From contig NBVN01000006.1 in assembly GCA_003056265.1 (NCBI GenBank), positions 48,678 through 80,677 on the forward strand: 32,000 bases of DNA, given 5' to 3'. The translations under genes and the position numbers were made by a program. This DNA is from Zestosphaera tikiterensis. GTDB taxonomy: Archaea > Thermoproteota > Thermoprotei_A > Sulfolobales > NBVN01. Below the pieces are notes generated by a model. The model was not told the origin of the DNA, made no database searches, and worked only from the letters and a program-made list of their open reading frames with translations. Position 1 is the stretch's first letter. Each line of letters opens with the position of its first letter. This document shows, one piece after another, positions 9,913-31,558 of this stretch.

Positions 9913-11084
9913 TTCCTCCTCACCAACTCCTCAAGTTTTTTATAGAGGCTTCTATCCTTAACCAACAGCTCCAGAATTAACTCCACGTCTTTATCGCTGG
10001 TTGAACTAACTAAAGCCTGAACCAACTGTGTGATGCCCTCATCTTTAAACGTTTCTTTAATGACCGCATCTAAACTAACTGTAGATACGCCCTCACCACG
10101 GCCCTCCCCAACCTCGAGTTCCCCACCTTCAGCTGTTTTAGTCAGTATTCGAAAGTCGGAGATTAACCCCCTCTCAACAGCCCTACTTAACTCCGTTCTA
10201 AGCTTCTCAGCTTCAAACCTGCTTAATTTAGATGTGAGCTCCACGTACAGGATGGGCTTCTTAACTAGGTTGTGACTTCCTAACCTACCTAAGCTTTGCT
10301 GAAGTTCGTTAACGTTTTTAATCACTAACTTCGCAAACCTTCTAAACCTCTCTAAACGTATGTGTTGAAGTACCGCTTCAGAACCACTTAAATCAACTAA
10401 AACAACGTATCTCTCATCCCTATATTCTTGAATGTCTTGAGCTTCTGTAGAGCCTGGGTATACGATAGGCGGGTTTCTAATGTTTGGATATACGTAGTTT
10501 ATGTGGTAATCCCCTAAAGCCACGTAGTTATACTCTTTAACAGGTAGTTGAGTTATTGAGATGTGATAGCTGGGTAAGCCCAACTCCTGAAGCAGTATAT
10601 GCGCTATGAGGATCTTCTTACGTGCTTCAGGGGGTTTAACCTTACTTAAGACTTCCTTAGCCATAGAGCCTTCGAAGTAGGGGATGCCGGTAACCCCTAA
10701 GTCCCCTGAGTTAAGCTTAACCACTTCGTTTTTTACGTCGCCTGGAGACTCACCTAACGAGTGAGCAAGCCCTAACTCCTTAAGTACGTGTATTGGTGAG
10801 GCTCCAGCACGTTTAGCCATGTCATGCTGACCCGCCACAACAATGAACTTTATGTTCCGTTCTCTCAACTTGTTTAAAGCCTTAACTGCGTATACGTAGG
10901 GTCTTGGAGGAGGTCTGAAGTCGTCGAATAGATCTCCTGAATGTATTACGGCGTCTACATGTTCTTTAATCGCTATATCTATAGCTTCATCGAAGACTTC
11001 GTAGAAGTCTTTCTCCCTCTCGAAACTTCCAGTAAAGGGTTTTGAAGAGCCTAAATGCGTGTCTGAAACGTGAAGTAGTAACAT
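9909..11084 (-). CDS. mre11: Mre11 nuclease
   Basis: Phosphoesterase motifs DTHLG, GDLFD, AGQHD and GDYH in canonical order. Sits immediately upstream of rad50. Confidence 0.95.
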   Translation of the reverse strand: MLLLHVSDTHLGSSKPFTGSFEREKDFYEVFDEAIDIAIKEHVDAVIHSGDLFDDFRPPPRPYVYAVKALNKLRERNIKFIVVAGQHDMAKRAGASPIHVLKELGLAHSLGESPGDVKNEVVKLNSGDLGVTGIPYFEGSMAKEVLSKVKPPEARKKILIAHILLQELGLPSYHISITQLPVKEYNYVALGDYHINYVYPNIRNPPIVYPGSTEAQDIQEYRDERYVVLVDLSGSEAVLQHIRLERFRRFAKLVIKNVNELQQSLGRLGSHNLVKKPILYVELTSKLSRFEAEKLRTELSRAVERGLISDFRILTKTAEGGELEVGEGRGEGVSTVSLDAVIKETFKDEGITQLVQALVSSTSDKDVELILELLVKDRSLYKKLEELVRRK

Positions 11085-11101
11085 CCTTAAACCACCTTAT
11101 C

Positions 11102-12712
11102 TTAAAGCTCCGTTAAGGAGCTCCTCTCCTTAGCTTTAGAGGCTTCGGAATTACGCTCTATTAACTTGTCCCTCCATACACTCACTACTTTAGGTGAGGC
11201 ACCTAACTTCTTACCTTCGTGTTTATCTATGTGAGCGTAAACAGTGAACCTCCCCACCCACTCACCAACTAAGATCGCGTGTCCCGGCGGGAAAGAAGGC
11301 ATTAAGTTGGAGTACTCCTCGCTTAACACGTCTGAAAACTCAACTACTTTATTTCTATCCATGGTTTGAACTAACTTGAAGAAGGCGAAGTTCTGAACCT
11401 GCGATACTATCGCTGGGTCTAAAGTCCTCGGTCTCTGACTAACTATAGCTAACATAGCCCCGAATTTCCTGCCCTCCCTAACGAACCTCTGGAGGGCTTC
11501 CTTAGATTCCGTATGTCTATTCTCACTTAAGAATATGTGGGCCTCCTCAACAACCAGGAGTGTTGGGATCGCCCTCCTCTCCTTCAAAGACCAGAGCAGG
11601 TCTTCAGCGATTACCTTAAGCATCCAGTCCTGCTCGCTATCCGTTAACTCGGAGACGTCCACATCTATTATCCTCTCAGGCGCTATTAACTCACTAACTT
11701 CAGGCATGTCTAGGCTTGTTTTATGCCATTCGAAGAAGTCCTCTATCTTATCTATTATGTTATCCCTTAGCTTATCGTCTTTAGGTACGGCTTTAATCAC
11801 CTCGCCTTTAAGGAGTTCCTCATAAGCTTGTATTTCGCTTAAGTCACCACCTACCGCACGTCCAGACGCTTTAGCTAACTCAACCACAGCTTTAGATAGG
11901 GGTATCCCCTCCTTCGAAGCCTTCTCTAAGATCCTACCGTTTAAACTTTTTATCGCGTTCCTCAATATCCTCCTTTGCTTGGTTGCCCCCGGCTCGGAAA
12001 TTATGAACATCGTAAGCAATCTAATAGGGGTTTTAATTAAGTTTATGCTTGCTTCGTAAGACACGACCTCAACCCTACCTGGGTTCTCGCTTTCCAACTT
12101 ATACTCGCCGTGTGTGTCGAAGATCACTACGCTACCGCCTAATCCAGCCACCCTATCCGCTAAGACCGCTATGAAGTTGCTCTTACCTGAGCCCGTAACC
12201 CCAGTTACTAAGAGGTGCTTTACTAAAGCGTTTACGTTAACCCTAACTTCAATGTCTTCTTCGTGGCCGGCTAGAGAACCCACTCTAATGCTTTCCTCCG
12301 GGTCTTGCCTGTAGATCTTGCTGAGGTGTTGTGGGGTTGCTAAATATACTTTAGTTTCAGGCGGGGGTGGGTACGTAGGTACTGAAGGCCTGTCTTCAGT
12401 TATGTCCGCTATGAGTATAGCGTCCATTACGGACTCCCGCTTAAGTTCTAAAAGCTCTGGAGCTTCAACAACTACTGTGGGGATTGACGTAGGGGGTTTA
12501 CTCATCACAGGCGTTAAAGACTTGAATTGAGTTGCGCCTATAAGACCTACTACATCCCTCCTCATGACGTTCTTAGATCTTGGGTCTTTAACCTGGTAGT
12601 TTAAGTATACATACGTCCCTACGGGTAAGGGATACCTAGCCTTAACGCTTATCCTCGTCGGTGAGGACTCCTCACCAACAACGCCTACCTCAGTTAGGTT
12701 CTGAACGCTCAT
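11102..12712 (-). CDS. herA: HerA hexameric DNA helicase/translocase
   Basis: Walker A GVTGSGKSN and Walker B LLVVEEAH. Its start overlaps the nurA stop by 4 nt and it lies in an operon with mre11/rad50. Confidence 0.9.
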   Translation of the reverse strand: MSVQNLTEVGVVGEESSPTRISVKARYPLPVGTYVYLNYQVKDPRSKNVMRRDVVGLIGATQFKSLTPVMSKPPTSIPTVVVEAPELLELKRESVMDAILIADITEDRPSVPTYPPPPETKVYLATPQHLSKIYRQDPEESIRVGSLAGHEEDIEVRVNVNALVKHLLVTGVTGSGKSNFIAVLADRVAGLGGSVVIFDTHGEYKLESENPGRVEVVSYEASINLIKTPIRLLTMFIISEPGATKQRRILRNAIKSLNGRILEKASKEGIPLSKAVVELAKASGRAVGGDLSEIQAYEELLKGEVIKAVPKDDKLRDNIIDKIEDFFEWHKTSLDMPEVSELIAPERIIDVDVSELTDSEQDWMLKVIAEDLLWSLKERRAIPTLLVVEEAHIFLSENRHTESKEALQRFVREGRKFGAMLAIVSQRPRTLDPAIVSQVQNFAFFKLVQTMDRNKVVEFSDVLSEEYSNLMPSFPPGHAILVGEWVGRFTVYAHIDKHEGKKLGASPKVVSVWRDKLIERNSEASKAKERSSLTEL

Positions 12713-13752
12713 GTGAACTCACCCAACACTTCACGTCCTGAAAAGATGTTTCCGTAGCCTAACTTCTGCATTACTGAGGTTACTTCAGAGTTTTTGAGTT
12801 TGCTTGTGGCGTGGGCTATCCGCAGAGGTTCTGGATATCCGTTGCTGGAGTATTTCATAACCGTTGATAATATCCTACGTACTTCATCAACTTCCTTAAC
12901 GCCTGGGATGCTTACTTGATAGTATGGACCTCCGTATCCAAGGCTGACGTAAGTTACTGTCATCGGTATAAGCCCTGACACGTCGAATTCCCTCCTATTT
13001 AACGGGGGCGGTAACTCATCCTTACCGACGACTATAGGTTCTATTATGTGAGGCTCTAGAGGTAGTTTTAAAGTGTTTCTAAAGTAGTTTAATACAGCTA
13101 CGTCGTTTACCTCCCTACTAACTTTAGGGTCTTTAAACCATTCCCTAGCGTAGTAATTCAGCTTTACAGACTTGGATATGAATACTAAAGTAGCTGATTG
13201 TGAAAGCCTCCTTAGGGAATCCCTGATGTCCTCCCATAACTTCCTCACTTCCTCCCTCTTCTCTTTAACGCCTTTAAGTCCGAAGCTTAAGAACGATATT
13301 AAAGAACCGTCTAACATAGCTATGTAGCCGGACTCACCATCCAGTAAGTCCTCAATAAGTTGTAGCTCGTAAAGTCTTGACCTCATCTTAACTATCCTCT
13401 CTATTACGTGATCAGGTACTGACTCCTTTTCTGTATGGGAGTGTTTCTCATAGCCTGCCTTAACTTTCAAGTCTGTTGAGGGCCCCCCGCCCGACCTACA
13501 GTACTTTAAACCAACTGCTTGGATTAAATATAGGGTTACGTAAGCAAAGCTTTTCTTAACGTAGCTTGAGTCGGAAGATAAAACGCCTTGAATATGTAAC
13601 GCGTCGTTAGAGTCTAAACCCACGTACTTAACGTTCACGTCTTTAACTATCCCGCGAATGTTTCTTAAATCCTTATCTATGTCGGATAACGCCTCGAAAA
13701 GCTTCTCAACGGTTTCATCGTATAAAGGCAGTCCCACACACCCAACAAACAC
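12709..13752 (-). CDS. nurA: NurA 5'-3' nuclease
   Basis: 347 aa with a GTG start. NurA-like acidic motifs (SSDSSY, AMLDGSLISF). The assignment also relies on its position coupled to herA. Confidence 0.8.
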   Translation of the reverse strand: MFVGCVGLPLYDETVEKLFEALSDIDKDLRNIRGIVKDVNVKYVGLDSNDALHIQGVLSSDSSYVKKSFAYVTLYLIQAVGLKYCRSGGGPSTDLKVKAGYEKHSHTEKESVPDHVIERIVKMRSRLYELQLIEDLLDGESGYIAMLDGSLISFLSFGLKGVKEKREEVRKLWEDIRDSLRRLSQSATLVFISKSVKLNYYAREWFKDPKVSREVNDVAVLNYFRNTLKLPLEPHIIEPIVVGKDELPPPLNRREFDVSGLIPMTVTYVSLGYGGPYYQVSIPGVKEVDEVRRILSTVMKYSSNGYPEPLRIAHATSKLKNSEVTSVMQKLGYGNIFSGREVLGEFT

Positions 13753-13972: not shown

Positions 13973-14902
13973 CTACGGTTCTGTAGCGCTTTCCTCAATT
14001 ATTAACGCTACCTCCTTAGGATCTATCGATGCTTTAACGCCTAAGGGAATTGTTATGTTTGGTTTTCCATGCCCGAATTTCACGCCTTTAAGTATGGGCT
14101 TATTTAAAGGTTTTAACACCTCCTCAAATACTTGATTTAATGTTAGGCTTTCCTCAGGGTTATCCGTCTCGCAGTTTGTGAAGTGTCCTAACACAATCCC
14201 AGCTGCTTGATCTAGCTTTCCAGAAAGCCTCAGCTGGGTTAACATCCTATCCACTCTATAAGGTTTTTCATTAACCTCCTCTAAAACAAGTATCTTGCCC
14301 TTGGTGTCTATCTCGTATGGTGTGCCGAGGGTTGAAACGATTAGGGATAGGTTGCCTCCCACGACCTCACCTTCAGCGAAGCCCTTAACCAGCATTTCCT
14401 CGCCGGCGATCTCCCCCAGAGGTTCTGAGGTTGTTAAAGCTTTAATTAGATATTCCTTAGTAACTTCATCTAGTTCCTCGCTAATGAACTCCACCGTAGG
14501 CATGGGGCCGTGAAACGTTATTAAACCGGCTTTTTGATTTAAAGCTATATGTAACGCGGTTATGTCGCTATACCCTAAAAGCACCTTAGGGTTTTTAGAG
14601 ATTAAGCCGTAGTCAAGTAGGTTTAACAACCTTAAGGAACCGTACCCACCGCGAACAGCGAAAACAGCTGAAACTTCAGGATCTACGAACATATTCATTA
14701 GGTCTGAAGCTCTAACGCCGTCTTCACCAGCTAAGTAGCCATGCCTGAGGTAGCAAGACCTACCCACCTTAACCTTAAAACCAAACCCCTCAACAAACCT
14801 TACAGCACGTTCTAACTTACTCGGCTCCACCGGACGTGCTGGAGCTACAAACCCAATAACGTCACCCTTCTTCAAGGCTTTAGGCCTTACATACTTAGCC
14901 AA
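13973..14902 (-). CDS. LD-carboxypeptidase / MccF-like S66 serine peptidase
   Basis: KKGDVIGFVAPARP, AVRGGYGSLRLL and LLGYSDITALH (nucleophile Ser) all fit the S66 family. Confidence 0.85.
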   Translation of the reverse strand: MAKYVRPKALKKGDVIGFVAPARPVEPSKLERAVRFVEGFGFKVKVGRSCYLRHGYLAGEDGVRASDLMNMFVDPEVSAVFAVRGGYGSLRLLNLLDYGLISKNPKVLLGYSDITALHIALNQKAGLITFHGPMPTVEFISEELDEVTKEYLIKALTTSEPLGEIAGEEMLVKGFAEGEVVGGNLSLIVSTLGTPYEIDTKGKILVLEEVNEKPYRVDRMLTQLRLSGKLDQAAGIVLGHFTNCETDNPEESLTLNQVFEEVLKPLNKPILKGVKFGHGKPNITIPLGVKASIDPKEVALIIEESATEP

Positions 14903-14937: not shown

Positions 14938-15450
14938 TCAACCCCTACCTAAATACTTAGTCAACAACCTTCTAGCAGTTAACGCCTGCCTACAGTCAGG
15001 ACATACGTAGATATCAGTATGCATATATAAATCACCAACCCTTTTATTAATCTCAACAACTAACTTAACTGGTGTGAAGGCTCTACCGCAGACCTTGCAA
15101 GTAACCGTTCTAAACACAAGTTCCCGCATTACGTCCTTCAGGTTAAACACGCTTAGTTCGAATTTGTTTGTTGTTTTTATTGCTTTTTGTGGGCATGTTT
15201 GTACGCACATCCAGCAGAATATACATCTACCTATGAAGTATTTTAGTATTGTTTCTTTTTCGTTTACTTCTATTGTTAATGCTTTTGGCGGGCATATCCT
15301 AACGCAAGCACCGCAACCAACACATTTAACAGGATCGATCTCAATCAAACCTCTAAACTCAGAAGTAACTAAAGAAGACTCAAAAGGATACCTCCTAGTA
15401 ACAGTACCAACAGTAGCTGAAGCTTTAAGAACCTTCAAAAACTTAACCAC
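14938..15450 (-). CDS. 2x[4Fe-4S] ferredoxin subunit of membrane-bound hydrogenase (HycF/NuoI/CooX-like)
   Basis: CVGCGACVRICP and CIFCWMCVQTCP, plus a C-terminal CxxC...CxxC as in HycF-type subunits. Confidence 0.85.
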   Translation of the reverse strand: MVKFLKVLKASATVGTVTRRYPFESSLVTSEFRGLIEIDPVKCVGCGACVRICPPKALTIEVNEKETILKYFIGRCIFCWMCVQTCPQKAIKTTNKFELSVFNLKDVMRELVFRTVTCKVCGRAFTPVKLVVEINKRVGDLYMHTDIYVCPDCRQALTARRLLTKYLGRG

Positions 15451-17153
15451 TAACTACCACCCTTAACACTTAACTTAATTAACGGTACCCTCTCAATCTT
15501 ACCTGTTTTTATGTTTATTTTTATTGCTCTGTCTGTGCATGAGAAGCATGGGTCTATGCTTGCTATTGTTATTGGTGCGTCAGCTAAGTCAACACCTCTT
15601 AACATCGTGGGTACTGCCTGTAGGTTTTGATACGTTGGGGACCTAACTCTCCATCTATAGGGTCCATACATGCCGGTAATCACTAAATGTATTACTTCGC
15701 CTCTTGGTGCTTCAACGTTTCCTAGCCCTAGCTTCATTGGCTGTGGTTCCCATGAATTAACTTTGATTTCGCTACCTGATGGTATTGTGTCGAGTAGTTG
15801 TTCTATTATGTTTATTGATTCGTATACCTCATCTATTCTTACTAACGTTCTAGCTAGGTTATCGCCTTCACTATACGTTGGTATTGAAAAACTTACGAAG
15901 TGGTAGGCGCCGTAGGTGTAGTCCTTCCTAACATCCCTACTAAGTCCTGAACCTCTAGCCGTAGGCCCTACCAACGAATAAGCTCTAGCCTCACCACCAG
16001 GTAAAACACCAGTACCCGATAACCTCCTCCTAACCTGAGGTACGTTAAGGAGAACTTCGGCAAACCCTTTGTAATCCTTCCATACTTCTTTTAGTGTTTG
16101 TTTTGTTTTTTCTATTTTTTCTTTGTTTATGTCTTTTCTTACCCCACCTACTAAGTTTATTCCGTATGTTTTCCTACTACCTGTTAATAACTCAGATAAA
16201 ACCATAACCTTCTCCCTAATCCTCCAAGCATACATAAAGCCTGTGTCGTATCCTAGCAAATGTGCCGCTATCCCCAGCCATAGTAGGTGGCTATGTATTC
16301 TTTCCAGCTCTAGTATTATTGTTCTTATGTATTGTGTTTTTTCAGGTACTTCAATGTTTAAAGCTTCTTCAACAGCTTGAGTATATGAAACAGAATGAAC
16401 AAAACCGCAAATACCGCAAATCCTCTCAGCAAGAAAAGGAATCTGGTCATAACCCATGCTTTCGCCTAGTTTTTCAATACCTCTATGAACCATAAAACCA
16501 ACATATCTAGCGTCAACGACCTTCTCTTCCTTAATATACAGCTCGAAATACTCCGGTTCGTGAAGTGCTGGGTGGTAAGGACCTACAGGTATTAAAGCTA
16601 CTTCTTCAGCTCCTACTTCAAGGGCTTTCTCACGTACTTGTGGTTGATATAGTTTTTTTATTTCTTCTGTTGTTATGTCTTTTTTTAGTGGGTGTATTTC
16701 TTCAGGCCAATCATCAGGTAATACAAGCCTTTTAAGAAACCTACCACTAAACTTAACGCCCATTAAATCATGAGCCTCAAGCTCATACCAATCACAAGCC
16801 TTAACAACGTCGGAAATGGAGGGTATTTCATAATGTTTTGATAGAGCCGCAGGTATCTTAACCTCTAAGATTACGTTTACTCCCTCCCTATCTAAGCCGA
16901 AGACGTAGTAAAGCTTAATTGAGTCGTTAATTAACTTCTCATCCGACGCTACCATAGTTCTTAAGTATACGTCCTCCTCAGACTGTAGGGCTTCAGCTAC
17001 TTTACGTAGGCATTCACTTTTCACAGACACTTTAACTGTTTTATCATGTATGAATTCTATCGACGTATGTGGCCCGCATAAGTCCTTAATCCTATTCAAC
17101 ACCTTAACTGTTTGGGTTTCCCCGCCTTCTTTAATTAGTAGCTGCTTAACCAT
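15450..17153 (-). CDS. [NiFe] hydrogenase large subunit, NuoC-NuoD fusion (HycE-like, group 4)
   Basis: 567 aa. The N-terminal NuoC-like domain (LVLPDDWPEEIHPLKKD) is followed by the NiFe ligands RICGICGFVHS and DPCFSCTDR, then a 25-aa tail. Confidence 0.9.
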   Translation of the reverse strand: MVKQLLIKEGGETQTVKVLNRIKDLCGPHTSIEFIHDKTVKVSVKSECLRKVAEALQSEEDVYLRTMVASDEKLINDSIKLYYVFGLDREGVNVILEVKIPAALSKHYEIPSISDVVKACDWYELEAHDLMGVKFSGRFLKRLVLPDDWPEEIHPLKKDITTEEIKKLYQPQVREKALEVGAEEVALIPVGPYHPALHEPEYFELYIKEEKVVDARYVGFMVHRGIEKLGESMGYDQIPFLAERICGICGFVHSVSYTQAVEEALNIEVPEKTQYIRTIILELERIHSHLLWLGIAAHLLGYDTGFMYAWRIREKVMVLSELLTGSRKTYGINLVGGVRKDINKEKIEKTKQTLKEVWKDYKGFAEVLLNVPQVRRRLSGTGVLPGGEARAYSLVGPTARGSGLSRDVRKDYTYGAYHFVSFSIPTYSEGDNLARTLVRIDEVYESINIIEQLLDTIPSGSEIKVNSWEPQPMKLGLGNVEAPRGEVIHLVITGMYGPYRWRVRSPTYQNLQAVPTMLRGVDLADAPITIASIDPCFSCTDRAIKINIKTGKIERVPLIKLSVKGGS

Positions 17154-18037
17154 GATAGAATCACCAAGAGGGAAATAATGATGAGTGTGGTTGTCGTAAG
17201 GGTTTTCAAGCTTAAGTCTATTCTAGTCCTACCAAGTAAAGCCGCTGTAAAGCCGTAACTTAAGTAGATCATTAAGCCGAAGGTTACGTTCGCCGCTAGT
17301 TTTATTGCGGGGTTTGTAAGGGATGTGAATGGGGTTAGGATTAGATACGCGGTGATGAAGCTTAATAAGTACTTCTTAAGTATGTGTGTGTATGAATATA
17401 TGCTTAGTAAAGGACCGCTTAACTCTATTAAAACCCCGCTAGCTAGTTCAGGTTCTGCTTCATGAATATCGTAGGGCACCCTACCACTGCTTACGTACGT
17501 AGTGATTACGACTAACGCAACACTAATTACGTAGGAAGTTATTAGCTGAGGGGACGTGTCGCTGGTGAGGTTTTTAAGAGCTGTTATTGAGTACAGCACA
17601 CCTACGAAAAAGCCTACCTCATTAACTACTTGAAGCAGGATTTTCCTAAAACTACCCACTACCGCGTAAGGGTTTGAAGTCGTTAACGACGTTAAGGATA
17701 TTAGTACGTGCGACCCAGATATTAACAATACAGTTAACGCTAGGTTTGCCGGGGTGAAAACATCTTGAGCGACAATCCAGATAGTGGAGGCTGTGGCGGT
17801 GACAGCCGTCACTAAAGCTATTGAAGATATGGTTAAGGTTAATTCAGCGCCTTTAGGAACTATTAACTCCTTAACCGCGAGTTTACGTAAGTCGTAAAAC
17901 GTCTGAAGTATGGTTGGAGGACCTACTCTAAACTGTATTTTAGCCCTTACTTTCCTTTCAATACCGTCAGCTAGTGGGGGAATTAAAAGCGAGAGAGTTA
18001 CAACAACCGCTTGAAGGATTAGTGTGGGAGTATCCAT
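17135..18037 (-). CDS. hydrogenase membrane subunit (HycD/NuoH/CooK-like)
   Basis: 300 aa, polytopic. DGIERKVRAKIQFRVGPP...QTFYDLRKL is the NuoH/HycD N-terminal signature. Confidence 0.85.
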   Translation of the reverse strand: MDTPTLILQAVVVTLSLLIPPLADGIERKVRAKIQFRVGPPTILQTFYDLRKLAVKELIVPKGAELTLTISSIALVTAVTATASTIWIVAQDVFTPANLALTVLLISGSHVLISLTSLTTSNPYAVVGSFRKILLQVVNEVGFFVGVLYSITALKNLTSDTSPQLITSYVISVALVVITTYVSSGRVPYDIHEAEPELASGVLIELSGPLLSIYSYTHILKKYLLSFITAYLILTPFTSLTNPAIKLAANVTFGLMIYLSYGFTAALLGRTRIDLSLKTLTTTTLIIISLLVILSWLSSY

Positions 18038-18414
18038 GCGTAAAACACCATCATAAGTAGTGAAGCTACGAGGAGGAAATCCACATATAGAGACATAACA
18101 GCTAAAGCGTCCTCCATAACTGCTTGAAGACCTGCTACATATCTTGTAAAGATTCCGTAGGCTCTTACTACAGCGCTTTCTGAGTGGCTAAAGCGTTTAT
18201 AAGCCTCGCTGGCTGAGCCTATGATTAGATTCACGAAGGAGTTCTCAAGGTCTGAAAAGGTCAGCGTAGGTCGTGGGAGTTTTTCAACCTTAGCTTCCTC
18301 ACTAGGTTTAAAAGCCTTAGTTAAAACAGATCTTAACTTAAGCAACGCATACATTAACTTCAGCATTAGGGAGTTTATAAAGCGAGGTTTTACTACGGCG
18401 GGTTCGCTACTCAT
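18019..18414 (-). CDS. hypothetical small protein with C-terminal TM helix, embedded in the hydrogenase operon
   Basis: The track ORF runs 18019-18435. The likely start is ATG 18414 (MSSEPAVV...), which forms a TAATG overlap with the upstream stop. No NuoB-type Cys motifs; the only hydrophobic segment is LYVDFLLVASLLMMVFYAWIL. Confidence 0.5.
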   Translation of the reverse strand: MSSEPAVVKPRFINSLMLKLMYALLKLRSVLTKAFKPSEEAKVEKLPRPTLTFSDLENSFVNLIIGSASEAYKRFSHSESAVVRAYGIFTRYVAGLQAVMEDALAVMSLYVDFLLVASLLMMVFYAWILPH

Positions 18415-19946
18415 TAAACACTCCCTCCTAACCATAGGGGTTTTGACAAGATGTTCTTAACGTATGTGTAGGCATACCACATAACGGCTAAAGCTAACGT
18501 ACTTAAAACAAGTAAAGACGCTGTTAACGTAGAGCCTAAAGCGTGAAGGCCTAACACAATCAGCGTTGGGAACGTAGCTACGACATTCATTAAAGACATC
18601 GTAAAATCGCTTGACTCCAGCTGGGGAACGCCCCTAACCTCACTTGGGGGTTTCACCTTAATCGCCCCCCAGTAAGTCAGCATGTATCTACTGCCGTAAG
18701 CAGCTGATAGAGCTAGCCCAACAGCTAAAACACTCACTAGTAAGACCCCTACAGGAGGTGAGTTAAGTATGGCTTCAGCGAAGCCTGTGAAGACCAAGAC
18801 CTTACTGACGAACCCTAAGGATGGCGGTATGCCTATGAGGGACATAGTGGAGATTAAAGCTGAGTAGGTGGGTTTAGGCGCTACCCTCCCTAAGTAACCG
18901 AGTTTAGGAAGTTCTCTAGTGTGTGTTAAAACCTCAACAACGCCTGAGTTCATGAATAAAGCTGCTTTAAATATACCATGCGCTAATGAGTAAAGTAAAG
19001 CACCCGTAAATAAGACGTCTAAGTTGAATAACCTATACGTGGTTAAAGCCAAGACTATGATGCCTGTGTTTTCTATGGTGCTATACGCTAACACCCTTTT
19101 TATGTCTGTCTGCGTTAATGCTTGTAAACCACTATATATTACAGTTATCGAGGATAGGAAGGTAAGCAGGTATAGCGTGTAGTCCGTTGAAGGTACTGAA
19201 GGTATAATCCTAAATATGCCATAGATGCCCATCTTAACCATAACACCTGATAAAACAGCTGAAGCCGGTGCTGGAGCTAGTGAGTGAGCGTCTGGAAGCC
19301 AGAAATGAAACGGAGCAACGGCTGCCTTACCTAAAAAACCAAGTAGTATAAGCGTGTAAAACGCTGGGTTAACGTCAGTTAAGATTTTGTTTAACCCATT
19401 CACGGGCGTTAAGAAGGCTTCACCTAAACTTAACTTGCCGGCAACCACGCCTAACATAGTTAATAAAGCAATGTCTGAAGGTATCATAGAGATTAAAAGA
19501 TATCTTAAACCAGCGACTAAAGTCCTTCTCTCAACTTCATAAACTATGTTGAAGAAGCCTATTATCTCCGCGAAAAGCCAAGCCATAATGAATATGGAGA
19601 GCTCGGTAGAGATGAAGACGAAGTATATGCTGAATACGAACGTATCTATCAATGAAGTAAGTCCTCCCCCACCGTATTTAACGCGTTCGTATGTCTGCGT
19701 GTAGACAGTTAGGAAGGCGCCAACCAACAGGCATAAAACCGCGAAGACCTTCGAAATTACGTCTAAGCCGCTATAGTAAAAAAGTGTGAACCCGATTAAG
19801 ATTGCGTATATAAAAACCTTCACATACGCTTTAAAACCGTTTTTTATGAGGGAATTAACTGTAATGACGGCTAAAAACGCTACGGTGGTTACCACGTATT
19901 GCTGAGGGATTAAACCTACCTGCGATGTTAGGTTTTTAATAATCAT
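18414..19946 (-). CDS. antiporter-like hydrogenase membrane subunit (HycC/NuoL/CooM-like)
   Basis: 510 aa, polytopic. FWLPDAHSLAPAPASAVLSGVMVKMGIYG matches the NuoL/M/N core motif. Confidence 0.85.
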   Translation of the reverse strand: MIIKNLTSQVGLIPQQYVVTTVAFLAVITVNSLIKNGFKAYVKVFIYAILIGFTLFYYSGLDVISKVFAVLCLLVGAFLTVYTQTYERVKYGGGGLTSLIDTFVFSIYFVFISTELSIFIMAWLFAEIIGFFNIVYEVERRTLVAGLRYLLISMIPSDIALLTMLGVVAGKLSLGEAFLTPVNGLNKILTDVNPAFYTLILLGFLGKAAVAPFHFWLPDAHSLAPAPASAVLSGVMVKMGIYGIFRIIPSVPSTDYTLYLLTFLSSITVIYSGLQALTQTDIKRVLAYSTIENTGIIVLALTTYRLFNLDVLFTGALLYSLAHGIFKAALFMNSGVVEVLTHTRELPKLGYLGRVAPKPTYSALISTMSLIGIPPSLGFVSKVLVFTGFAEAILNSPPVGVLLVSVLAVGLALSAAYGSRYMLTYWGAIKVKPPSEVRGVPQLESSDFTMSLMNVVATFPTLIVLGLHALGSTLTASLLVLSTLALAVMWYAYTYVKNILSKPLWLGGSV

Positions 19947-19954
19947 TTAAACAC

Positions 19955-20155
19955 CTATTTAACGTGGCCTGCGAAGAATATAGTATGTTTTAAAAAGTCT
20001 ATCTTCACTAACGTGTATTCCTCGCTTAGAACGAGTTTCTTACCTTCTATATTGTATAGAACGTATTTAGGTCCTTCTTTTTCGAGGAGGATTACGTCGT
20101 TCAATAAAGTTTCTTCGGTGTTGTTTTTAATTAATATTGCTTTAGATTCACACAT
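19955..20155 (-). CDS. cooT: CooT-like nickel-binding CODH maturation protein
   Basis: 66 aa with Cys at position 2 (MCESKAILI...). The size, beta-rich pattern and position next to cooC fit the CooT family. Confidence 0.6.
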   Translation of the reverse strand: MCESKAILIKNNTEETLLNDVILLEKEGPKYVLYNIEGKKLVLSEEYTLVKIDFLKHTIFFAGHVK

Positions 20156-20172: not shown

Positions 20173-20979
20173 TTACTGTTTACCGTAGTTTTTATACTTT
20201 ATAATTTTCTTAGATAGCGCTGAAACGTCTTCATATATGATTGAGTTTTTAGGTATGCTGTCCAGCCCTAAACCCTTAACTTCAAGAGTCGGTATGTTGG
20301 GGTCGTACCTCACTATAAAATACGGTACTTCACCCTCTTTAAAAACTTCGTTGAAGACGTGAATGGCTTCCCTTACCTTAACCACTTTATTTAACACGAC
20401 TATGTTGTTAACGACGTTTAACTCCTTAGCTAAGTCCACTAACTTCTTAGCTATTTTAAGGGATTTCACCGTGGGTTCCGCCACGGTTAAGTTTAAATCG
20501 AAACGCTCAGCTAAGCCCCTACCGAAGACTTCAGCACCTGCTTCAGAATCTACTACGATTATCTCGTCTTTGCGTGTGAAGAGCCGAAGCAGTAAAGCCT
20601 TACCTAAAGCTATGGCGGGGCATAAACAACCTTCTTTACTAGCGTCTATACTTCCTAGCACTAGGAGCCTCAGCTTATCGTTTATCTTCACTGCGTACTT
20701 ATCGACTAGGTCGTCGACTTGAGGCGTTAGAGAGAAGAATATCCCCCACCCCTCCCCGGGCCTGGCTCCCGTGCGTTCCTCAATTAAAGACTCGTTCTTA
20801 GATATGGGTATTATCTCCTCATGTTTGGCTAAGCCTAGGCTTTGACCTATGTTGGGGACTGAGTCAGCGTCAACAACTAAAACTCGATATCCGTTGCTTG
20901 ATAGGGTTAAAGATAGGGCGGCCGCTATGGTTGTTTTACCAACGCCTCCCTTACCAGACACTAGTATCTTCATAATCAA
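20173..20979 (-). CDS. cooC: CooC nickel-insertion ATPase for CODH
   Basis: P-loop GKGGVGKTT and the CxC nickel motif (EGCLCPA). MinD/ParA-like, adjacent to cooS. Confidence 0.9.
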   Translation of the reverse strand: MIMKILVSGKGGVGKTTIAAALSLTLSSNGYRVLVVDADSVPNIGQSLGLAKHEEIIPISKNESLIEERTGARPGEGWGIFFSLTPQVDDLVDKYAVKINDKLRLLVLGSIDASKEGCLCPAIALGKALLLRLFTRKDEIIVVDSEAGAEVFGRGLAERFDLNLTVAEPTVKSLKIAKKLVDLAKELNVVNNIVVLNKVVKVREAIHVFNEVFKEGEVPYFIVRYDPNIPTLEVKGLGLDSIPKNSIIYEDVSALSKKIIKYKNYGKQ

Positions 20980-21060: not shown

Positions 21061-22974
21061 TTAGGTAGGCCAGCCGAGCTTCCTACGTTTCTCCATAATA
21101 ACGTTTAGTAAGGTCTCAGCAGCTTTCTCCGGGTCTGGTTCTACGTAGAACTTACCTCCTAGAAGACCTTCAACATCCTCTGTAAGGATTTTAGTTACTT
21201 TCTGACTACCTAATACTGGGGGTACGGTGCCTAAATGTACGAAGACTCCGGAAGCTATGAAGTACGTTCCTATACTTACGGCTTTCTCACTCATCCACTC
21301 AGGCGCTGAACCAACTACGGGTAGGTCAGGTATGTCAACACCTAATCTTTCGGAGATCGCTTTCAACACTATTAAAATCCTCGAGCAGTCTACGCAGCTA
21401 CCCATATGAAGACATGGCGGTATGCCTAAAGCCTCGCAAACCTTCCTTAGCCCGGGGCCTGTGTATTTAATCGCGTCTAACGTTAGGAGTCCGTGCATAG
21501 CCGCGGCTATAGCCCAACACCCAGTACCTACTACGAGGACGTCGTTCTCGATTAACTTCTTAGTTATGGTTATGTGGCTGTTGTTATGCTTTACTTTGGG
21601 GTTGTTACATCCTACGATTCCCGCTATGCCTTTGATTACGCCGTTACGTAATGCGTCGATTAGAGGGTCTAAACTGCCTCCTAACGCGTTTAAGATTGCT
21701 TCAACGCTGAATCCAGCAATCACCTCAGATTTATGCTTGGGTATGTAGACCCTCTCCTTAGGTCTTGAGGGGTAGTTCTCTATGGCTAGCTTAACTATCT
21801 TCTCAGCTATTTCGTCCGCATGGGTTGGTTCAAACTCTATGTGTATGGCTCCGGGGATCTTCATCTTAGGCTCTGTAGTTATTATTTTAGTGTGGTAACA
21901 TCTAGCTACATCAACTAAAGCAGGCCATACGCATTGGTAGTCAACTATCATAGCCTCTACAGCGCCGGTAATTATAACTAACTCCTGCATTAGGTAATTA
22001 CCTACAGGTTGAATACCTAAGCGCATGAGGGTTTCATTGCCTGTGCAGCACATACCTACTACGTTAACCCCCTCCGCACCGAATTTCTTAGCGTATTCAA
22101 GCATTTCCTTACTCATAGCTTTCTCAACGATTTTCATAGAGAGTACTGGGTTATGGCCGTGAACGACTAGATTTACTGCGTCCTCCCTCAGCACGCCTAA
22201 GTTAGCGTAGCTTTTGAGGGGTTTCGGCGTCCCGAAGAGTATGTCGCTAAGTAGTGTAGCCATCATCGAGCCGCTCCAGCCGTCTGCTAACGCTGTTCTA
22301 ACGCCGTGGGTTAGGAGGCTTAACGGGTCTGCGTCAACGCCCACGTGGGTTCTATGCATTGCTTCACATATCTCCCTATCTATGTTTCTAGGCATTACGC
22401 CTAACTTACTCCATAAGCTTAACCTCCTAGCCGGCGCTAGAGCCTTAACTAAGGCTAGAGGTTCTTCGTCCTGCTTGCCGAACTCCCTCTCGAGGATGTT
22501 AACTAGGTCGAGTAGTATTTCCTGGTCTGACCTGCCATCTACTTTAACGCCTAACGCTGTGGCTACGCTTTTTAATTTATCGCTATCCGTCACTTTATAA
22601 GCTTTCGTGAGGCCTTCGGCTGTAAACCTAGCTACTCTAACTATATCTCTCGCGTGGTCGCTGTGTGCTGCGGCGCCGGCGGCTATAGCCCTTAGTAAGT
22701 TCCTCGCTACTATAGTGTCTGCTGTAGCTCCGCATACACCTCTTGAGGGTCCGTAACCGTAGGGGTCTATCCTGCATGGACCCATGTTGCAGTTCCTGCA
22801 GCAAACCCCTAACAGCCCAAACCCGCATTGAGGTTGTTGCTCTAGATATCTCTGCCATACAGTCGAGATCTCCTCTTCCTCCGCTTTCTCTATTAACTCA
22901 GGCACTCCAGGAGTTATCGATATCTTCTTGGCTGGCGGGAGTCTAAACCTTAAGTATTTAGTTCGTTCATCCAT
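21061..22974 (-). CDS. cooS: anaerobic Ni,Fe carbon-monoxide dehydrogenase catalytic subunit
   Basis: 637 aa. The N-terminal CGFGLLGVCCRNCNMGPCRI (B/D-cluster Cys pattern), VVHGHNP and GMCCTGNE are typical of CooS. Confidence 0.95.
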   Translation of the reverse strand: MDERTKYLRFRLPPAKKISITPGVPELIEKAEEEEISTVWQRYLEQQPQCGFGLLGVCCRNCNMGPCRIDPYGYGPSRGVCGATADTIVARNLLRAIAAGAAAHSDHARDIVRVARFTAEGLTKAYKVTDSDKLKSVATALGVKVDGRSDQEILLDLVNILEREFGKQDEEPLALVKALAPARRLSLWSKLGVMPRNIDREICEAMHRTHVGVDADPLSLLTHGVRTALADGWSGSMMATLLSDILFGTPKPLKSYANLGVLREDAVNLVVHGHNPVLSMKIVEKAMSKEMLEYAKKFGAEGVNVVGMCCTGNETLMRLGIQPVGNYLMQELVIITGAVEAMIVDYQCVWPALVDVARCYHTKIITTEPKMKIPGAIHIEFEPTHADEIAEKIVKLAIENYPSRPKERVYIPKHKSEVIAGFSVEAILNALGGSLDPLIDALRNGVIKGIAGIVGCNNPKVKHNNSHITITKKLIENDVLVVGTGCWAIAAAMHGLLTLDAIKYTGPGLRKVCEALGIPPCLHMGSCVDCSRILIVLKAISERLGVDIPDLPVVGSAPEWMSEKAVSIGTYFIASGVFVHLGTVPPVLGSQKVTKILTEDVEGLLGGKFYVEPDPEKAAETLLNVIMEKRRKLGWPT

Positions 22975-22979
22975 TTAAA

Positions 22980-23597
22980 TCACCCCCAAGAAACTGATGA
23001 GTACATCTGCCGTAACTCAATAAGTTTAGACGGCGTTGTTTCCTCGGTGACTACCCTCACGTAGACCTTACCCGGCGTTGCTTTACCGCTGACTAACTCC
23101 TTAGCTTTAGATGCGCTTAACTCCCTTAGGAAGTCTTCAAGATATCCATATCTTAACGCGCCTGTAGGGCATGCTTCAACACATGCGGGCATTAAACCCT
23201 TCCTAACCCTATCCACGCAGAAATCACATTTAACTGCCTTCCCCACAGCTACGTCTATCTTAGGATGGCCGAAGGGACACGCTAAAGAACACATGCCACA
23301 CCCTATGCATTTAACAGCGTTAAGCAGTACGAAGCCTTCGGGACTTCTGTAAATTGCTTTAGTAGGGCATACGATCTCGCAAGGTGCTTCAGTACAGTGT
23401 TGACACCTCATGGGTATGCTGAATATAGTGTCAACAGGCACCACTCTAATCCTAGCTGAGGGTTTAGGGGTTTCTAAATGTGCGGTGAGTGTAGACTTAG
23501 TTATTGAGTGTTCTGTCGCGCAAGCTACTTCACATGCTTTGCAGGCTAAACAACGCGTAGGGTCTATAAATATGACGAGCTGTGAAATAGATCCCAC
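22980..23597 (-). CDS. cooF: CooF-type 4x[4Fe-4S] ferredoxin
   Basis: Four cluster motifs: CLACKACEVAC, CQHCTEAPCEIVCP, CIGCGMCSLACP and CDFC...CVEACP. GTG start, 5 nt upstream of cooS. Confidence 0.9.
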   Translation of the reverse strand: MGSISQLVIFIDPTRCLACKACEVACATEHSITKSTLTAHLETPKPSARIRVVPVDTIFSIPMRCQHCTEAPCEIVCPTKAIYRSPEGFVLLNAVKCIGCGMCSLACPFGHPKIDVAVGKAVKCDFCVDRVRKGLMPACVEACPTGALRYGYLEDFLRELSASKAKELVSGKATPGKVYVRVVTEETTPSKLIELRQMYSSVSWG

Positions 23598-23665
23598 CGA
23601 ATTTACTTACTCGTGCGTGAATTAAACGATTTCGAATTCTATGGTTGGAATATATACTTAGCTAA

Positions 23666-24781
23666 TTATTCGATTGATTGATCACGGCTTCCTAGCTGGC
23701 GTTCTTTAAAGTCTTTATAGAGCTCAACCAGCTTAAGCCCTTCTGAAGTTAATGTGGTTTTACCTCGGCTTACACCCCCTCTAGTTGAGTGTATTAATTT
23801 AGTCTTAATGCGTTTTTCAAGCTTACGTATTCTTTCAACGCATGTGGATGGGCTTATCTTAAGTTCTTTACATGCTTTACGTAAAGAGCCTAACCTATCA
23901 ACGAGATCTAACAGTTGTATGGTTTCCTCAGGTATTACGACGTCGTTTACCTTTAGGTTTAAACTTACTAAGGGCTTAACCTTCATACCGCTAGCTATTG
24001 TTAGAGGGCATGGCTTCCTTAAAATCTCTTTTAACTCGTTATTAGATGACGGGATTAAGTTCTTCGTTAGGTTGTCGTAAGGGCATTTACCCACTTTACC
24101 TGAGTGATCTACGTAGATTTTAAAGCATTCGGAGGCTTTAGGGTGGTTTAAAAACGTTATTTTATGTCCTTCAACGTAAGCTACGGAGGCTTTATACCCG
24201 TATAGGAATCCGTACGGGAGGCCTACGTCATAACCTTTCTCTAGGAGGGTGTTTTTAAATGGTGTTAGGTTCTGATCGCATGAGTATGGAGGTTCACCAA
24301 CTCTAACTTTCAACTCGTACTTCCTGCTTAAGTTGATTAAACGCTTAAGTAAGGCTTCGTTGATTCCAGCTGGGCTTAACGAAGCATATATAGCTAAGTT
24401 CTCAACGCCGAAGCTTACCATAGCGTTAACGCGCTTCTCTAGGTTTGTTAAGTTGCTGAGGTCGTTAACTACTATAGGTACTTCATCGAATTTACTTATT
24501 AAGTCTTTACTTAAGTTAGCGATCTTAACCTCAGGAACGAAGAAGTAAACCTTATCTGCGGTTGATTTCAACACATCAACAACTTCGGAGGCTTGGTTGG
24601 TAGTTGTTGGGCATAGAAGTACTGCTTCGTTAAAACGTACGTTACTTAACGACTCTAGGCATTTCATAATTAACTTTAAATCTCCTGAGTTGTTAACTAC
24701 ATCGTCCCCGAAGTTTAAGCTGCAGTTAACGCATTTATTCCCGCAGTAGTTGCTTAACCTAAGTAGAAGGGTTTTCCACAT
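23666..24781 (-). CDS. radical-SAM/SPASM-like domain fused to ModE/LysR-type HTH (putative regulator)
   Basis: 371 aa. The N-terminal LRLSNYCGNKCVNC gives CxxxCxxC. ECFKIYVDHSGKVGKCPY looks twitch/SPASM-like. The C-terminal LLDLVDRLGSLRKACKELKISPSTCVERIRKLEKRIKTKLIHSTRGGVSRGKTTLTSEGLKL is a ModE N-terminal HTH pattern. Confidence 0.6.
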   Translation of the reverse strand: MWKTLLLRLSNYCGNKCVNCSLNFGDDVVNNSGDLKLIMKCLESLSNVRFNEAVLLCPTTTNQASEVVDVLKSTADKVYFFVPEVKIANLSKDLISKFDEVPIVVNDLSNLTNLEKRVNAMVSFGVENLAIYASLSPAGINEALLKRLINLSRKYELKVRVGEPPYSCDQNLTPFKNTLLEKGYDVGLPYGFLYGYKASVAYVEGHKITFLNHPKASECFKIYVDHSGKVGKCPYDNLTKNLIPSSNNELKEILRKPCPLTIASGMKVKPLVSLNLKVNDVVIPEETIQLLDLVDRLGSLRKACKELKISPSTCVERIRKLEKRIKTKLIHSTRGGVSRGKTTLTSEGLKLVELYKDFKERQLGSRDQSIE

Positions 24782-24878
24782 GACTTACTTTACCGTAATT
24801 ACTTTCTTTAACGTTAGTTATAACTTTCACGTTATCTTCTTAAACTTTGTTTTTAATGTGTGGTTTACGTATTAATCG

Positions 24879-26093
24879 GTGGTTTTCACGGGTTGGGAGG
24901 AGCTTAGGGGGTTGTTCCCTGCTTTAAAGTATTTTAAAGCGTTTTTAAATACTGCGTCTGAGGGTTTAGCTCCCGTAGGTGTTTTGAAGGCTTTAACGTA
25001 CTTCGCTGATGTTTTATCCACTCATGATTTAAGGTTGAATGAAGTTCTCGAGTCTATGGTTGATGAGGCGCGTGGTGAGGTAGCTAAGCTTGTTGGGGGT
25101 GGTGTTGATGAGGTGGCTTTCACCGTTCAAACTACTGATGGTTTGAAGAGGGTTTTATCCTCTCTTAATGTTGGGAGGGGTGATGTGGTAGTTAGCGTTG
25201 ATTTGGAGTTTCCGACGGTGTCTTCCTTGATTAAATCCCTCTGTAGTGTTAGGGGTTGCGTGCCTAGGGTTGTTGAGGGTTTTGGGCGTTACGACGTTGG
25301 GTTTTTCGAGGAAGTCATTGACGATAGGACTAAGGCCGTGGTTGTTTCCTCTGTTAATTGGGTTTCTGGGTGGAGGTTGGATTTAAGGAGGTTGTCTAAG
25401 GTTGTTCACGACCGCGGGGCTTTACTCGTGGTTGACGGCGTGCAGCATGTTGGGGCTTTAAAACTTGACGTTAGGTATGAAGGGGTTGATGCTTTATGTG
25501 TTGGTGGGGAGAAATGGCTTTTAAACCCGTATTTAGGCTCTGGTTTTATGTATGTTAGGAGGGAGTTAATCGAGGATTTAGATGTTGGGGTTTACGGCAT
25601 CTTAAATAGGGAGCCCCCACCCAGCGGGTGGTCTTCCTACTGGCCCGACCCAAGTAAAGACCCTTGGTCCTTACCTGAAGTTTCTAAAACTGCGGTGAGG
25701 TTTGAGTGGGGTGGTGGTAGGCCATACCCTCAGGTACTGACGTTATATGAGGCCGTCAAGCTAATTAACTCGGTAGGTATTGAGAGCATTGAAGCCAGGG
25801 TTCTCGAGTTGAGGGGGTATTTAATTAAGAGGTTGGTTGAGGAAGGTTATGAAGTCCTACACCACGTCGAGGATAGGAGGGCGTGGTCCGGGATAACCTT
25901 AGTTAAGACTGGCTTACCTCAAGACAAGGAGTTAGAGTTGGTTAGAAGGCTTGTTAGGATGGGTGTAGTAGTTTCGTATAGAGGCGCGAGGAACTTCTCA
26001 GGCGTGAGGGTTTCAACACATTTCTACAACGACTTCAACGACGTTGAAGAATTCGTTAAAGCATTGAATGAAGAGAAGGTTAAGTTGAGTTAA
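24879..26093 (+). CDS. class V aminotransferase-fold PLP enzyme (cysteine desulfurase/selenocysteine lyase-like)
   Basis: 404 aa with a GTG start. LLVVDGVQHVG and CVGGEKWLLNPYLGSGFMYVRRE (PLP-Lys context) fit class V. Confidence 0.75.
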   Translation: MVFTGWEELRGLFPALKYFKAFLNTASEGLAPVGVLKALTYFADVLSTHDLRLNEVLESMVDEARGEVAKLVGGGVDEVAFTVQTTDGLKRVLSSLNVGRGDVVVSVDLEFPTVSSLIKSLCSVRGCVPRVVEGFGRYDVGFFEEVIDDRTKAVVVSSVNWVSGWRLDLRRLSKVVHDRGALLVVDGVQHVGALKLDVRYEGVDALCVGGEKWLLNPYLGSGFMYVRRELIEDLDVGVYGILNREPPPSGWSSYWPDPSKDPWSLPEVSKTAVRFEWGGGRPYPQVLTLYEAVKLINSVGIESIEARVLELRGYLIKRLVEEGYEVLHHVEDRRAWSGITLVKTGLPQDKELELVRRLVRMGVVVSYRGARNFSGVRVSTHFYNDFNDVEEFVKALNEEKVKLS

Positions 26094-31193: not shown

Positions 31194-31217
31194 CTTTCAA
31201 TTCTATTTTATAGATTC
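31194..31217 (-). repeat. 24-bp repeat, copy B (inverted partner of 26346-26369)
   Basis: ctttcaattctattttatagattc is the exact reverse complement of copy A. It contains the stop codon of the truncated nitroreductase ORF. Confidence 0.9.
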
Positions 31218-31558
31218 CCCGCCTCCATACTTTGAACCCACTTCCTAACGCTTCCTTTGGGGTAGGGCTCCTTAAGCACTTTCGTAGCGTAGATTACGTG
31301 AGCTTCCTTAAGCAACTCATAAATCTTCCTACGCTTCCCCTCCGACATAACCACAACGAAAAACCACTTCTCCACACCCCCAGCTATAGGTGCCCTAACC
31401 CCAGCCTCCAAAACCTCATTAACCACATCAACAGGTAAGGGATCAGGCCTAAATACACGTACCGAAGCCCTCGAAAATATCACCTCCTTAACATCCAACC
31501 GATACAAACACCCCCAACAACACATAACGCAATCCAAGAAATTAAATCCGTGAGACAC
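31208..31558 (-). CDS. nitroreductase-family protein, N-terminal half only (probably truncated/pseudogene)
   Basis: VKEVIFSRASVRVFRPDPLPVDVVNEVLEAGVRAPIAGGVEKWFFVVV is a nitroreductase N-terminal pattern. The ORF ends after about 100 family-like residues, inside repeat copy B. The C-terminal FMN-binding half is absent. Confidence 0.6.
   Translation of the reverse strand: MSHGFNFLDCVMCCWGCLYRLDVKEVIFSRASVRVFRPDPLPVDVVNEVLEAGVRAPIAGGVEKWFFVVVMSEGKRRKIYELLKEAHVIYATKVLKEPYPKGSVRKWVQSMEAGNL

Follow-up and report, generated by a model that had tools for sequence, protein, structure and literature searches.

The question raised by this locus is which protein controls a carbon monoxide (CO) oxidation operon in the archaeon Zestosphaera tikiterensis, and by which domain CO might be sensed. 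The DNA analysed, called the window below, is a stretch of 32,000 nucleotides (nt) from NCBI GenBank assembly GCA_003056265.1, i.e., positions 48,678 to 80,677 of contig NBVN01000006.1. An open reading frame (ORF) of 371 amino acids (aa) with an ATG start was called at 23666..24781 on the minus strand. Its stop codon was read 68 nt ahead of the GTG start codon of cooF at 23597, on the same strand. An earlier description made without database searches (the sequence-only reading) had proposed it as a new iron-sulfur (Fe-S) regulator of the CO operon, in which a radical S-adenosylmethionine (SAM)-like domain is fused to a ModE-type helix-turn-helix (HTH). In the present analysis, the gene was assigned as corR-like, and it very probably encodes a regulator of the CorR family that controls the coo-ech operon beside it. 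What is new is a member of this known regulator family with no partner gene corQ in the window.

Haem-free CO sensing in archaea has been an open question since the CorQR genetics of 2015. Kim et al. in 2015 are said to have named the V4R protein CorQ and the HTH protein CorR, and corQ was reportedly found to be genetically required in Thermococcus onnurineus. The two names are used here in this sense. In bacteria, CooA and RcoM are haem-based CO sensors that activate adjacent coo operons, and the window protein resembles them in being encoded beside such an operon. However, they are haem proteins of CRP/FNR or PAS-LytTR type, and the window protein has neither a haem-binding domain nor homology to them.

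Family Membership and Relation to CorQR

The family was searched by exhaustive HMMER with residues 1-280 against 1.84 billion representative sequences. Twenty-seven family representatives (clusters of 50% identity) were recovered, 25 of them 347-381 aa long and two truncated entries. All 27 aligned end to end, with the HTH at the C-terminus. The members belong to Z. tikiterensis (PUA31847.1, the window protein's own cluster), Desulfurococcales, Acidilobales, Pyrodictium, and Thermofilum, and further to Asgard archaea, Nitrososphaerota, and Thermococcus barophilus. Their database names are LysR family, winged-HTH, ModE-like, or hypothetical proteins. Other searches were less productive. The word-indexed protein search with the window protein returned only a 99% identical metagenome copy (locus L001) with the same gene order, and the same type of search with the family alignment added little. 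A scan of genome contigs with the window protein gave no match, and the locus search with the Thermococcus sub-alignment did not recover T. onnurineus.

The relation to CorQR was established through the two Thermococcus loci. In T. barophilus MP, a V4R gene (186 aa) is followed by the family member P0058 and then by cooF-cooS-cooC-cooT-Mch-Mnh, and the window protein matched this locus in tblastn with an E value of 3e-38. The T. onnurineus protein P0123 (369 aa) is 53% identical to P0058 at 100% coverage. BLASTP aligned 368 residues of P0123 and the window protein at 27% identity (E 5e-42), and every one of the seven conserved cysteines was kept. From orthology and the literature, P0123 would correspond to TON_1016. 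The codh cluster of T. onnurineus, TON_1016-1031, has the transcriptional regulator TON_1016 at its head, and TON_1017 is CooF (PMC2718504; PMC4463584). PMC6557876 presents CorQR as a pair of proteins, one with a V4R domain and one with a LysR-type HTH, that flank the codh cluster, and ascribes sensing to the V4R domain. The names are given there the opposite way, i.e., CorQ for the LysR-type protein and CorR for the V4R protein.

The sequence-only reading had counted CorQR among the regulators without the architecture found here. This was wrong. P0123 and P0058 show that the window protein is homologous over its full length to the HTH partner in CorQR, and because of this homology it does not represent a new regulator class. 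It resembles CorR of T. onnurineus NA1 in length, in the three-part architecture, in the seven conserved cysteines, and in the C-terminal ModE/LysR-type HTH. The gene also has the same place, directly upstream of cooF-cooS-cooC-cooT and hydrogenase genes, with a similar palindrome by the TATA box of cooF. However, the identity of the two proteins is only 27%, and the window has no V4R partner gene in its 32 kb. Zestosphaera (Desulfurococcales), the host, belongs to the crenarchaea and has an Ech-type cluster, whereas the cluster of T. onnurineus is of the Mch-Mnh type. In addition, the P-x-P-x-x-H-P motif that follows C57 is conserved in the family but degenerate in the window protein (PTTTN-Q).

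Gene Neighbourhoods and the Absence of corQ

The operon that follows the corR-like gene lies on the minus strand. It comprises cooF (22980..23597; ferredoxin-like, Fer4_11 of Pfam), cooS for the catalytic subunit of the nickel-containing carbon monoxide dehydrogenase (CODH; 21061..22974; Prismane, E 4e-185), cooC (20173-20979; domain search), and cooT (19955-20155; CooT Pfam match in the near-identical locus L001). Five genes of an Ech-type, i.e., energy-converting [NiFe], hydrogenase stand downstream of cooT on the same strand (14938..19946), including antiporter-like, NADHdh-like, fused 30k/49k large subunit, and Fer4 genes.

Neighbourhoods of family members were scored by tblastn and by called genes. 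Twenty-two loci other than the window were tabulated, and 20 distinct loci remained after the near-identical Zestosphaera copy L001 and the duplicate contig L007 (identical to L006) were set aside. The family gene adjoins cooF-cooS in 19 of the 20. Only L002 differs: its regulator stands ahead of a Mrp-Mbh-type hydrogenase, and no CODH is encoded. The link to the coo operon that was drawn from co-orientation and the short distance to cooF therefore holds across the relatives.

A V4R (CorQ) gene is adjacent or in the same cluster in 17 of the 20 loci. It is immediately upstream in 16, and in L022 it lies at the cluster's far end; none was found in L002 or in L021 (Nitrososphaerota). The window shares this lack, which weighs against its assignment to a CorQR-type system. 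No corQ was found in the 32 kb by tblastn with five V4R proteins or by a nine-sequence CorQ hidden Markov model (HMM) in six frames (best E 0.36; positive control 1e-66), and the metagenome copy L001 has no V4R gene either. The proteins of the P0019/21/24/25 type form a subgroup with a shorter HTH wing and no nearby V4R gene (L002, 10001-20417; L021, 7001-15098).

The CorQ-type V4R proteins themselves were aligned from nine loci (L003, L004, L006, L017-L020, L022, and L023). Five cysteines are invariant in this alignment, in YEC-x2-C, LC-x-FEAG, C-W-x-x-G, and F/Y-C-x-F, and these proteins may be metalloproteins themselves.

Among the Thermococci, Thermoproteota, Asgard, and Nitrososphaerota loci, CooS is 65-89% identical, whereas identity among the neighbouring regulators reaches only 23-39%. 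This difference suggests that the coo cluster spread laterally and that the regulator evolved very fast. Faster divergence of the window protein as a corQ-less member was considered and rejected. All CorR pairs fall at 23-39% identity whatever their corQ status, so that the protein from Zestosphaera is typical of the family.

N-Terminal Domain

The radical-SAM enzymes with a twitch or SPASM extension, e.g., BtrN, SpeY, BlsE, anSME, SuiB, and EpeE/YydG, are among the closest known counterparts of the N-terminal part. In the window protein, a degenerate radical-SAM-like (β/α)6 core was predicted at residues 1-181 (24239..24781, minus strand). It is followed by a β-rich twitch/SPASM-like subdomain at residues 185-262 (23996..24229, minus strand), with C219-x8-G228-x4-C233 and C258. 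The AlphaFold (AF2) model built on the 27-sequence family alignment had a mean predicted local distance difference test (pLDDT) score of 85.7; the model from the single sequence was poor (pLDDT 46). The former model has six alternating strand/helix units at residues 2-181, a β-rich subdomain at 185-224, a helix at 247-255, and then a three-helix winged HTH.

In the Foldseek search of this model against the PDB, the first 15 matches were all radical-SAM enzymes. ThiH was the best (7e-7), and the top matches included SuiB, EpeE, SpeY, HydG, BlsE, HydE, and PylB. Viperin-like enzymes, BtrN, and anSME stood lower in the list, and ModE was matched after the radical-SAM enzymes. The longest alignments, approximately 300-340 columns, were to the SPASM/twitch enzymes SuiB, BlsE, anSME, and SpeY. 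When the N-domain profile was compared with the PDB, the best matches were HydG, YydG/EpeE, ThiH, SpeY, SkfB, BlsE, BioB, and BtrN, all with the CX3CX2C motif aligned. In sequence searches of the window protein, the sole radical-SAM trace was the NCBIfam ThiH model over residues 7-63 (E 0.011). Relatives gave somewhat more. Radical_SAM (PF04055) was found in the same register in five of the 27 with sub-threshold scores of 16.8-23.6 bits against a cut-off of 29.5. The E values were 6.5e-5 in the Asgard protein P0005, 1.3e-3 in P0006, and 8e-3 in T. barophilus CorR (residues 9-161). Fer4_12 was matched by one family member.

Several results speak against the radical-SAM assignment. The Foldseek template modelling scores reach only modest values (0.3-0.45), and further down, the same list also contains ordinary TIM-barrel enzymes. 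The profile-to-PDB matches of the N-domain are weak (E 0.035-0.9). The Pfam models Radical_SAM, Fer4_12, and SPASM were not matched by the window protein, whole or in pieces, at an E value of 10 or below. Because there is no Pfam match, the assignment rests on the predicted fold, on the weak in-register profile matches, and on the sub-threshold matches of the relatives. The profile matches expected by the sequence-only reading were thus obtained in part, significant for HTH_1 and ModE and missing for Radical_SAM and SPASM. Structure prediction did agree with it, giving radical-SAM/SPASM/twitch enzymes first and ModE next. The overall architecture, i.e., a degenerate radical-SAM core, a twitch-like cysteine hairpin, and a ModE-type HTH, was supported by the fold model, the motifs, and the HTH matches.

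The first cysteine motif, CX3CX2C, consists of C13, C17, and C20 in CGNKCVNC at residues 13-20 (24722..24745, minus strand), as had been noticed before. It follows strand 1, as in the radical-SAM enzymes. The residue before the third cysteine is Asn, and an aromatic residue at this position is rare in the family. The GGE motif, reported missing before, is indeed replaced by LCPT at residues 56-59. In the alignments, LCP falls on TGGE of YydG and GE of HydG, so that C57 (24611..24613, minus strand) takes the position of the first Gly of GGE. C57 is a candidate fourth cluster ligand by this alignment and by its pattern of loss. SAM binding by the N-domain is unlikely because the aromatic residue before the third cysteine and GGE are both missing. 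The N-domain is thus read as descended from a radical-SAM module but as having lost SAM binding.

The second motif lies in the β-hairpin, CFKIYVDHSGKVGKC at residues 219-233, with the pattern C-x8-G-x4-C (C219-C233). It is one residue short of the classical C-x9-15-G-x4-C of twitch/SPASM domains. The helix 247-255 and C258 come after it, and the order of hairpin, helix, and further cysteine resembles that of the enzymes. The later cysteine pair that the sequence-only reading had likened to twitch/SPASM sites is present.

The conservation of these residues was counted over 117 distinct sequences of the family, each 330 aa or longer. C13/C20 were kept in approximately 94-96 sequences, C57 in 108, C219 and C233 in 108 each, C258 in 104, and G228 in 103. 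With this degree of conservation, the motifs cannot be put down to chance. All seven cysteines (13, 17, 20, 57, 219, 233, and 258) were present in 76 of the 117. The N-terminal cysteines were missing mostly in truncated gene calls or in one subfamily. Thirteen sequences lacked the first three cysteines only, and at least some of these, i.e., 340-aa Thermococcus entries, are N-terminally shortened gene calls. Joint losses were of two kinds. In seven sequences of Pyrodictium type, 13/17/20/57 were lost and 219/233/258 retained, and in nine sequences of Thermofilum type the reverse was seen.

Since each cysteine set was lost as a unit in different subfamilies, {13,17,20,57} and {219,233,258} are argued to be independent, which suggests two separate metal sites. 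By the same argument, C57 belongs to the first site because it was lost together with CX3CX2C. That C57 lies near the CX3CX2C loop is deduced from the alignment, not from model coordinates, and this counts against the assignment. It is probable that the N-domain binds Fe-S clusters. At the first site, a fourth cysteine may ligate the unique iron in place of SAM. The open coordination site proposed by the sequence-only reading is therefore doubtful, and a cluster fully ligated by cysteines would fit at least as well. Other conserved residues of the N-domain, many of them polar, are E52, S123, G125, Y132, G162, Y194, and Y196. A conserved GLPYGxLYGY motif is placed on one face of the barrel.

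Alternative Explanations of the N-Terminal Domain

The alternative that survives best, although it is unlikely, is that the N-domain is a structural or docking module whose cysteines bind zinc or stabilise the fold, and that CorQ does all the sensing. In this case, the Zestosphaera gene would need a corQ elsewhere or would be constitutive. The co-encoded V4R gene in most other loci (17 of 20) and the five conserved cysteines of CorQ proteins are in line with such a division of labour, as is the ascription of sensing to the V4R domain in PMC6557876. Moreover, some subfamilies manage without the set {13,17,20,57} or the set {219,233,258}. However, CX3CX2C in a radical-SAM fold is a classic site for a [4Fe-4S] cluster, and so is C-x8-G-x4-C in a twitch fold. 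The three lineages without nearby corQ, i.e., the window, L021, and L002, retain the N-domain cysteines nevertheless, except that Tyr replaces C13 in the protein of L002. The many conserved polar residues listed above also speak against a scaffold role.

A wholly new Fe-S regulator of CO, unrelated to CooA, RcoM, and CorQR, with a three-cysteine cluster whose open iron binds CO or SAM, is very improbable. The elements of this proposal are all there, i.e., CX3CX2C, the twitch-like cysteine pair, the HTH, and the coo synteny, and corQ is lacking in the window. It is opposed by the full-length homology to the HTH protein of the Thermococcus CorQR locus and by the presence of corQ next door in most relatives. 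In addition, C57, which occupies the GGE position, varies together with CX3CX2C, and this speaks against a site that must be open.

It is just as hard to believe that the protein works as a radical-SAM enzyme with an HTH attached, e.g., an autoregulating maturase or modifier of CODH or hydrogenase. The radical-SAM/twitch fold with its cluster motifs would suit an enzyme, the closest folds include HydG and HydE, both metallo-cofactor maturases, and the gene sits among the maturation genes cooC and cooT. However, LCP stands for GGE and the aromatic residue before the third cysteine is largely missing across the family, and whole subfamilies without CX3CX2C or the twitch cysteine set still keep the HTH and the locus. 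Furthermore, Pyrococcus furiosus makes an active CODH complex from TON_1017-1031 without TON_1016 (PMC4731540). The window protein also differs from the radical-SAM enzymes in falling under all Pfam thresholds and in its fusion to a DNA-binding domain. Unlike them, it is probably not catalytic.

Winged Helix-Turn-Helix Domain

The C-terminal HTH of ModE/LysR type, which the sequence-only reading had recognized, was confirmed at residues 284-361 (23699..23932, minus strand) by Pfam, NCBIfam, PDB profile, and Foldseek. The window protein matched HTH_1 (PF00126) over the gathering score (E 1.2e-9). The NCBIfam model ModE_repress (TIGR00637) was matched with an E value of 3.5e-13, in the HTH part only and with 49.5 bits against a cut-off of 98.5. 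The family profile matched 2ijl (E 3e-11) and ModE 1b9m (E 5e-8) in the PDB, and Foldseek paired the C-terminal part with ModE 1b9m/1o7l. HTH_1 was matched by all 27 family representatives.

By sequence profile and fold, the domain resembles the winged HTH of Escherichia coli ModE with its RGG...G..LT wing. However, the HTH is N-terminal in ModE and C-terminal in the window protein. ModE also has Mop/TOBE domains and a link to mod genes. Domain searches found no Mop/TOBE molybdate-binding domain in the window protein or in any of the 27 members, and no molybdate or tungstate transporter genes (mod, wtp) were present in any locus tabulated. The sequence-only reading had named relatives beside such genes as the sign of a molybdenum or tungsten regulator, and in the 20 distinct loci they were never so placed. 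A ModE-like molybdenum/tungsten-responsive regulator that stands beside coo genes by chance is hardly credible and was rejected: the ModE N-domain gives the strongest HTH matches, some database names are molybdate-related, and KEGG K02019 (modE) is the CorQR proxy in a 2026 survey (PMC13077300), but the Mop/TOBE domain and the mod and wtp genes are lacking and the cooF-cooS adjacency is nearly constant.

Candidate Operator Upstream of cooF

A palindrome of the form GTRTTC-N8-GAAYAC recurs in the corR-cooF spacers of a Desulfurococcales metagenome-assembled genome (L017), several Thermococci, and Hydrothermarchaeota. The window, L017, L013, L014, and L015 have a common layout, in which the palindrome is followed after 6-7 nt by a TATA box. 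The window has two candidate operators on the minus strand, each with two mismatches. The distal one, GTGATC-aatcaatc-GAATAA (23666..23685), overlaps the corR stop codon. The proximal one, ATATTC-caaccata-GAATTC (23634..23653), lies 7 nt upstream of TTTAATT (23620..23626, minus strand). TTTAATT was read as a putative TATA box, with its centre approximately 26 nt before the cooF GTG, and from this position the cooF mRNA would be leaderless.

The palindrome scores were compared with those of shuffled spacers and were significantly better in 10 of 13 loci. Among them were loci that had played no part in deriving the pattern, i.e., the window (p 0.014), L003, and L004 (p 0.002 each). Two points weaken this result. 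The pattern came from some of the loci that were later scored with it, and palindromes with at most two mismatches are not enriched window-wide (4 found, 3.8 expected). Two of these four sit within 52 bp at the corR-cooF junction. The GTRTTC-N8-GAAYAC-like sites are thus suggestive, partly post hoc, candidate operators.

Archaeal activators usually bind directly upstream of the TATA box and the transcription factor B recognition element. A site that abuts the TATA box on its upstream side therefore fits the positive role of CorQR. In the spacer upstream of corR (24782-24878), no operator-like palindrome was present, and so there is no evidence for autoregulation. Two other approaches were discarded. 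The k-mer enrichment in corR-cooF spacers was uninformative since AT-rich words dominated, and a sigma-70 promoter and terminator scan was set aside because the host is archaeal.

Proposed Mechanism and Significance

From these results, it is reasonable to propose a working model in which the CorR-like protein controls the adjacent cooF-cooS-cooC-cooT-Ech operon. The protein would dimerise via the ModE-like domain, and the dimer would bind the two GTRTTC-N8-GAAYAC-like palindromes, which are 32 bp apart and stop 7 nt short of the TATA box of cooF. Transcription would be activated from these sites, as it reportedly is by CorQR in the genetics of T. onnurineus. With the aromatic residue of CX3CXphiC gone and L-C-P in place of GGE, the N-domain would bind no SAM. 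Instead, C13/C17/C20 would carry one [4Fe-4S] cluster, with C57 as the probable fourth ligand, and C219/C233/C258 would carry another. Their redox or ligation state could be set by CO directly, or by the electrons of CO oxidation via CooS, CooF, and ferredoxin, and this state would flip the HTH between inactive and active forms. Because corQ is absent from this genome segment, CorR would act alone or with a distantly encoded partner.

The sensing part of the model is the most tentative. That the clusters of the N-domain sense CO or redox state is possible but rather doubtful. The same caution applies to the idea that the radical-SAM/twitch-derived domain is itself the sensor, which would make it the first Fe-S sensor of CO or of CO-driven redox change. 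Control of a DNA-binding domain by a cysteine-ligated Fe-S cluster has precedents in FNR, NsrR, IscR, WhiB-like proteins, and SoxR. Their folds are unrelated to the window protein, no radical-SAM/twitch scaffold occurs among them, and they are not known to respond to CO. If the model is right, the N-domain would be the first pseudoenzyme of radical-SAM fold to be recruited for signal input in a transcription factor. Zestosphaera, Nitrososphaerota, and the hydrogenase-only relatives would then show sensing without the V4R partner CorQ.

The assignment of an Fe-S sensor domain to CorR is apparently undescribed; the literature passages on CorQR that were consulted contain no mention of a radical-SAM/twitch or Fe-S domain and treat CorR only as a DNA-binding protein of LysR type. 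In the part of the table of the 2026 survey that was covered (PMC13077300), in which K02019 stands for CorQR, two Thermoproteota genomes with CODH/ECH are scored as having no regulator detected. The crenarchaeal CorR members have therefore probably been overlooked until now. The family is extended here to CODH loci of Thermoproteota, Asgard, Nitrososphaerota, and Hydrothermarchaeota. The conserved degenerate radical-SAM/twitch module with its two separable cysteine sets offers a concrete, testable sensor hypothesis, and the candidate operator could be used in the engineering of strains that convert CO to H2.

Other Genes of the Window

The divergent upstream neighbour of the corR-like gene is a class-V aminotransferase gene (24879-26093, plus strand). 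Its product is nearest to the cysteine desulfurases SufS, NifS, and CsdA, yet it scores far under every NCBIfam cut-off. That it supplies Fe-S clusters to the regulator or to CODH is only a guess.

At the other end of the operon, no NuoB/HycG-like small-subunit gene (Oxidored_q6) was found in the 32-kb window (tblastn best E 0.44). In L002, L004, and L023, such a gene stands right after the Fer4 gene of the hydrogenase. In the window, by contrast, an LD-carboxypeptidase-like gene (Peptidase_S66, 13973-14902) comes after it.

Immediately after the hydrogenase and peptidase genes comes a complete archaeal NurA-HerA-Mre11-Rad50 repair operon (7636-13752, minus strand). A NurA gene is also close to the family member in L022.

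Two partial coding sequences were also seen. An ORF of 123 aa at 6710-7081 (minus strand) matches only the C-terminal part of adh_short_C2 and overlaps the end of a methyltransferase ORF (6228-6782, plus strand); it is probably a gene fragment. A nitroreductase fragment of 116 aa was found at 31208-31558.

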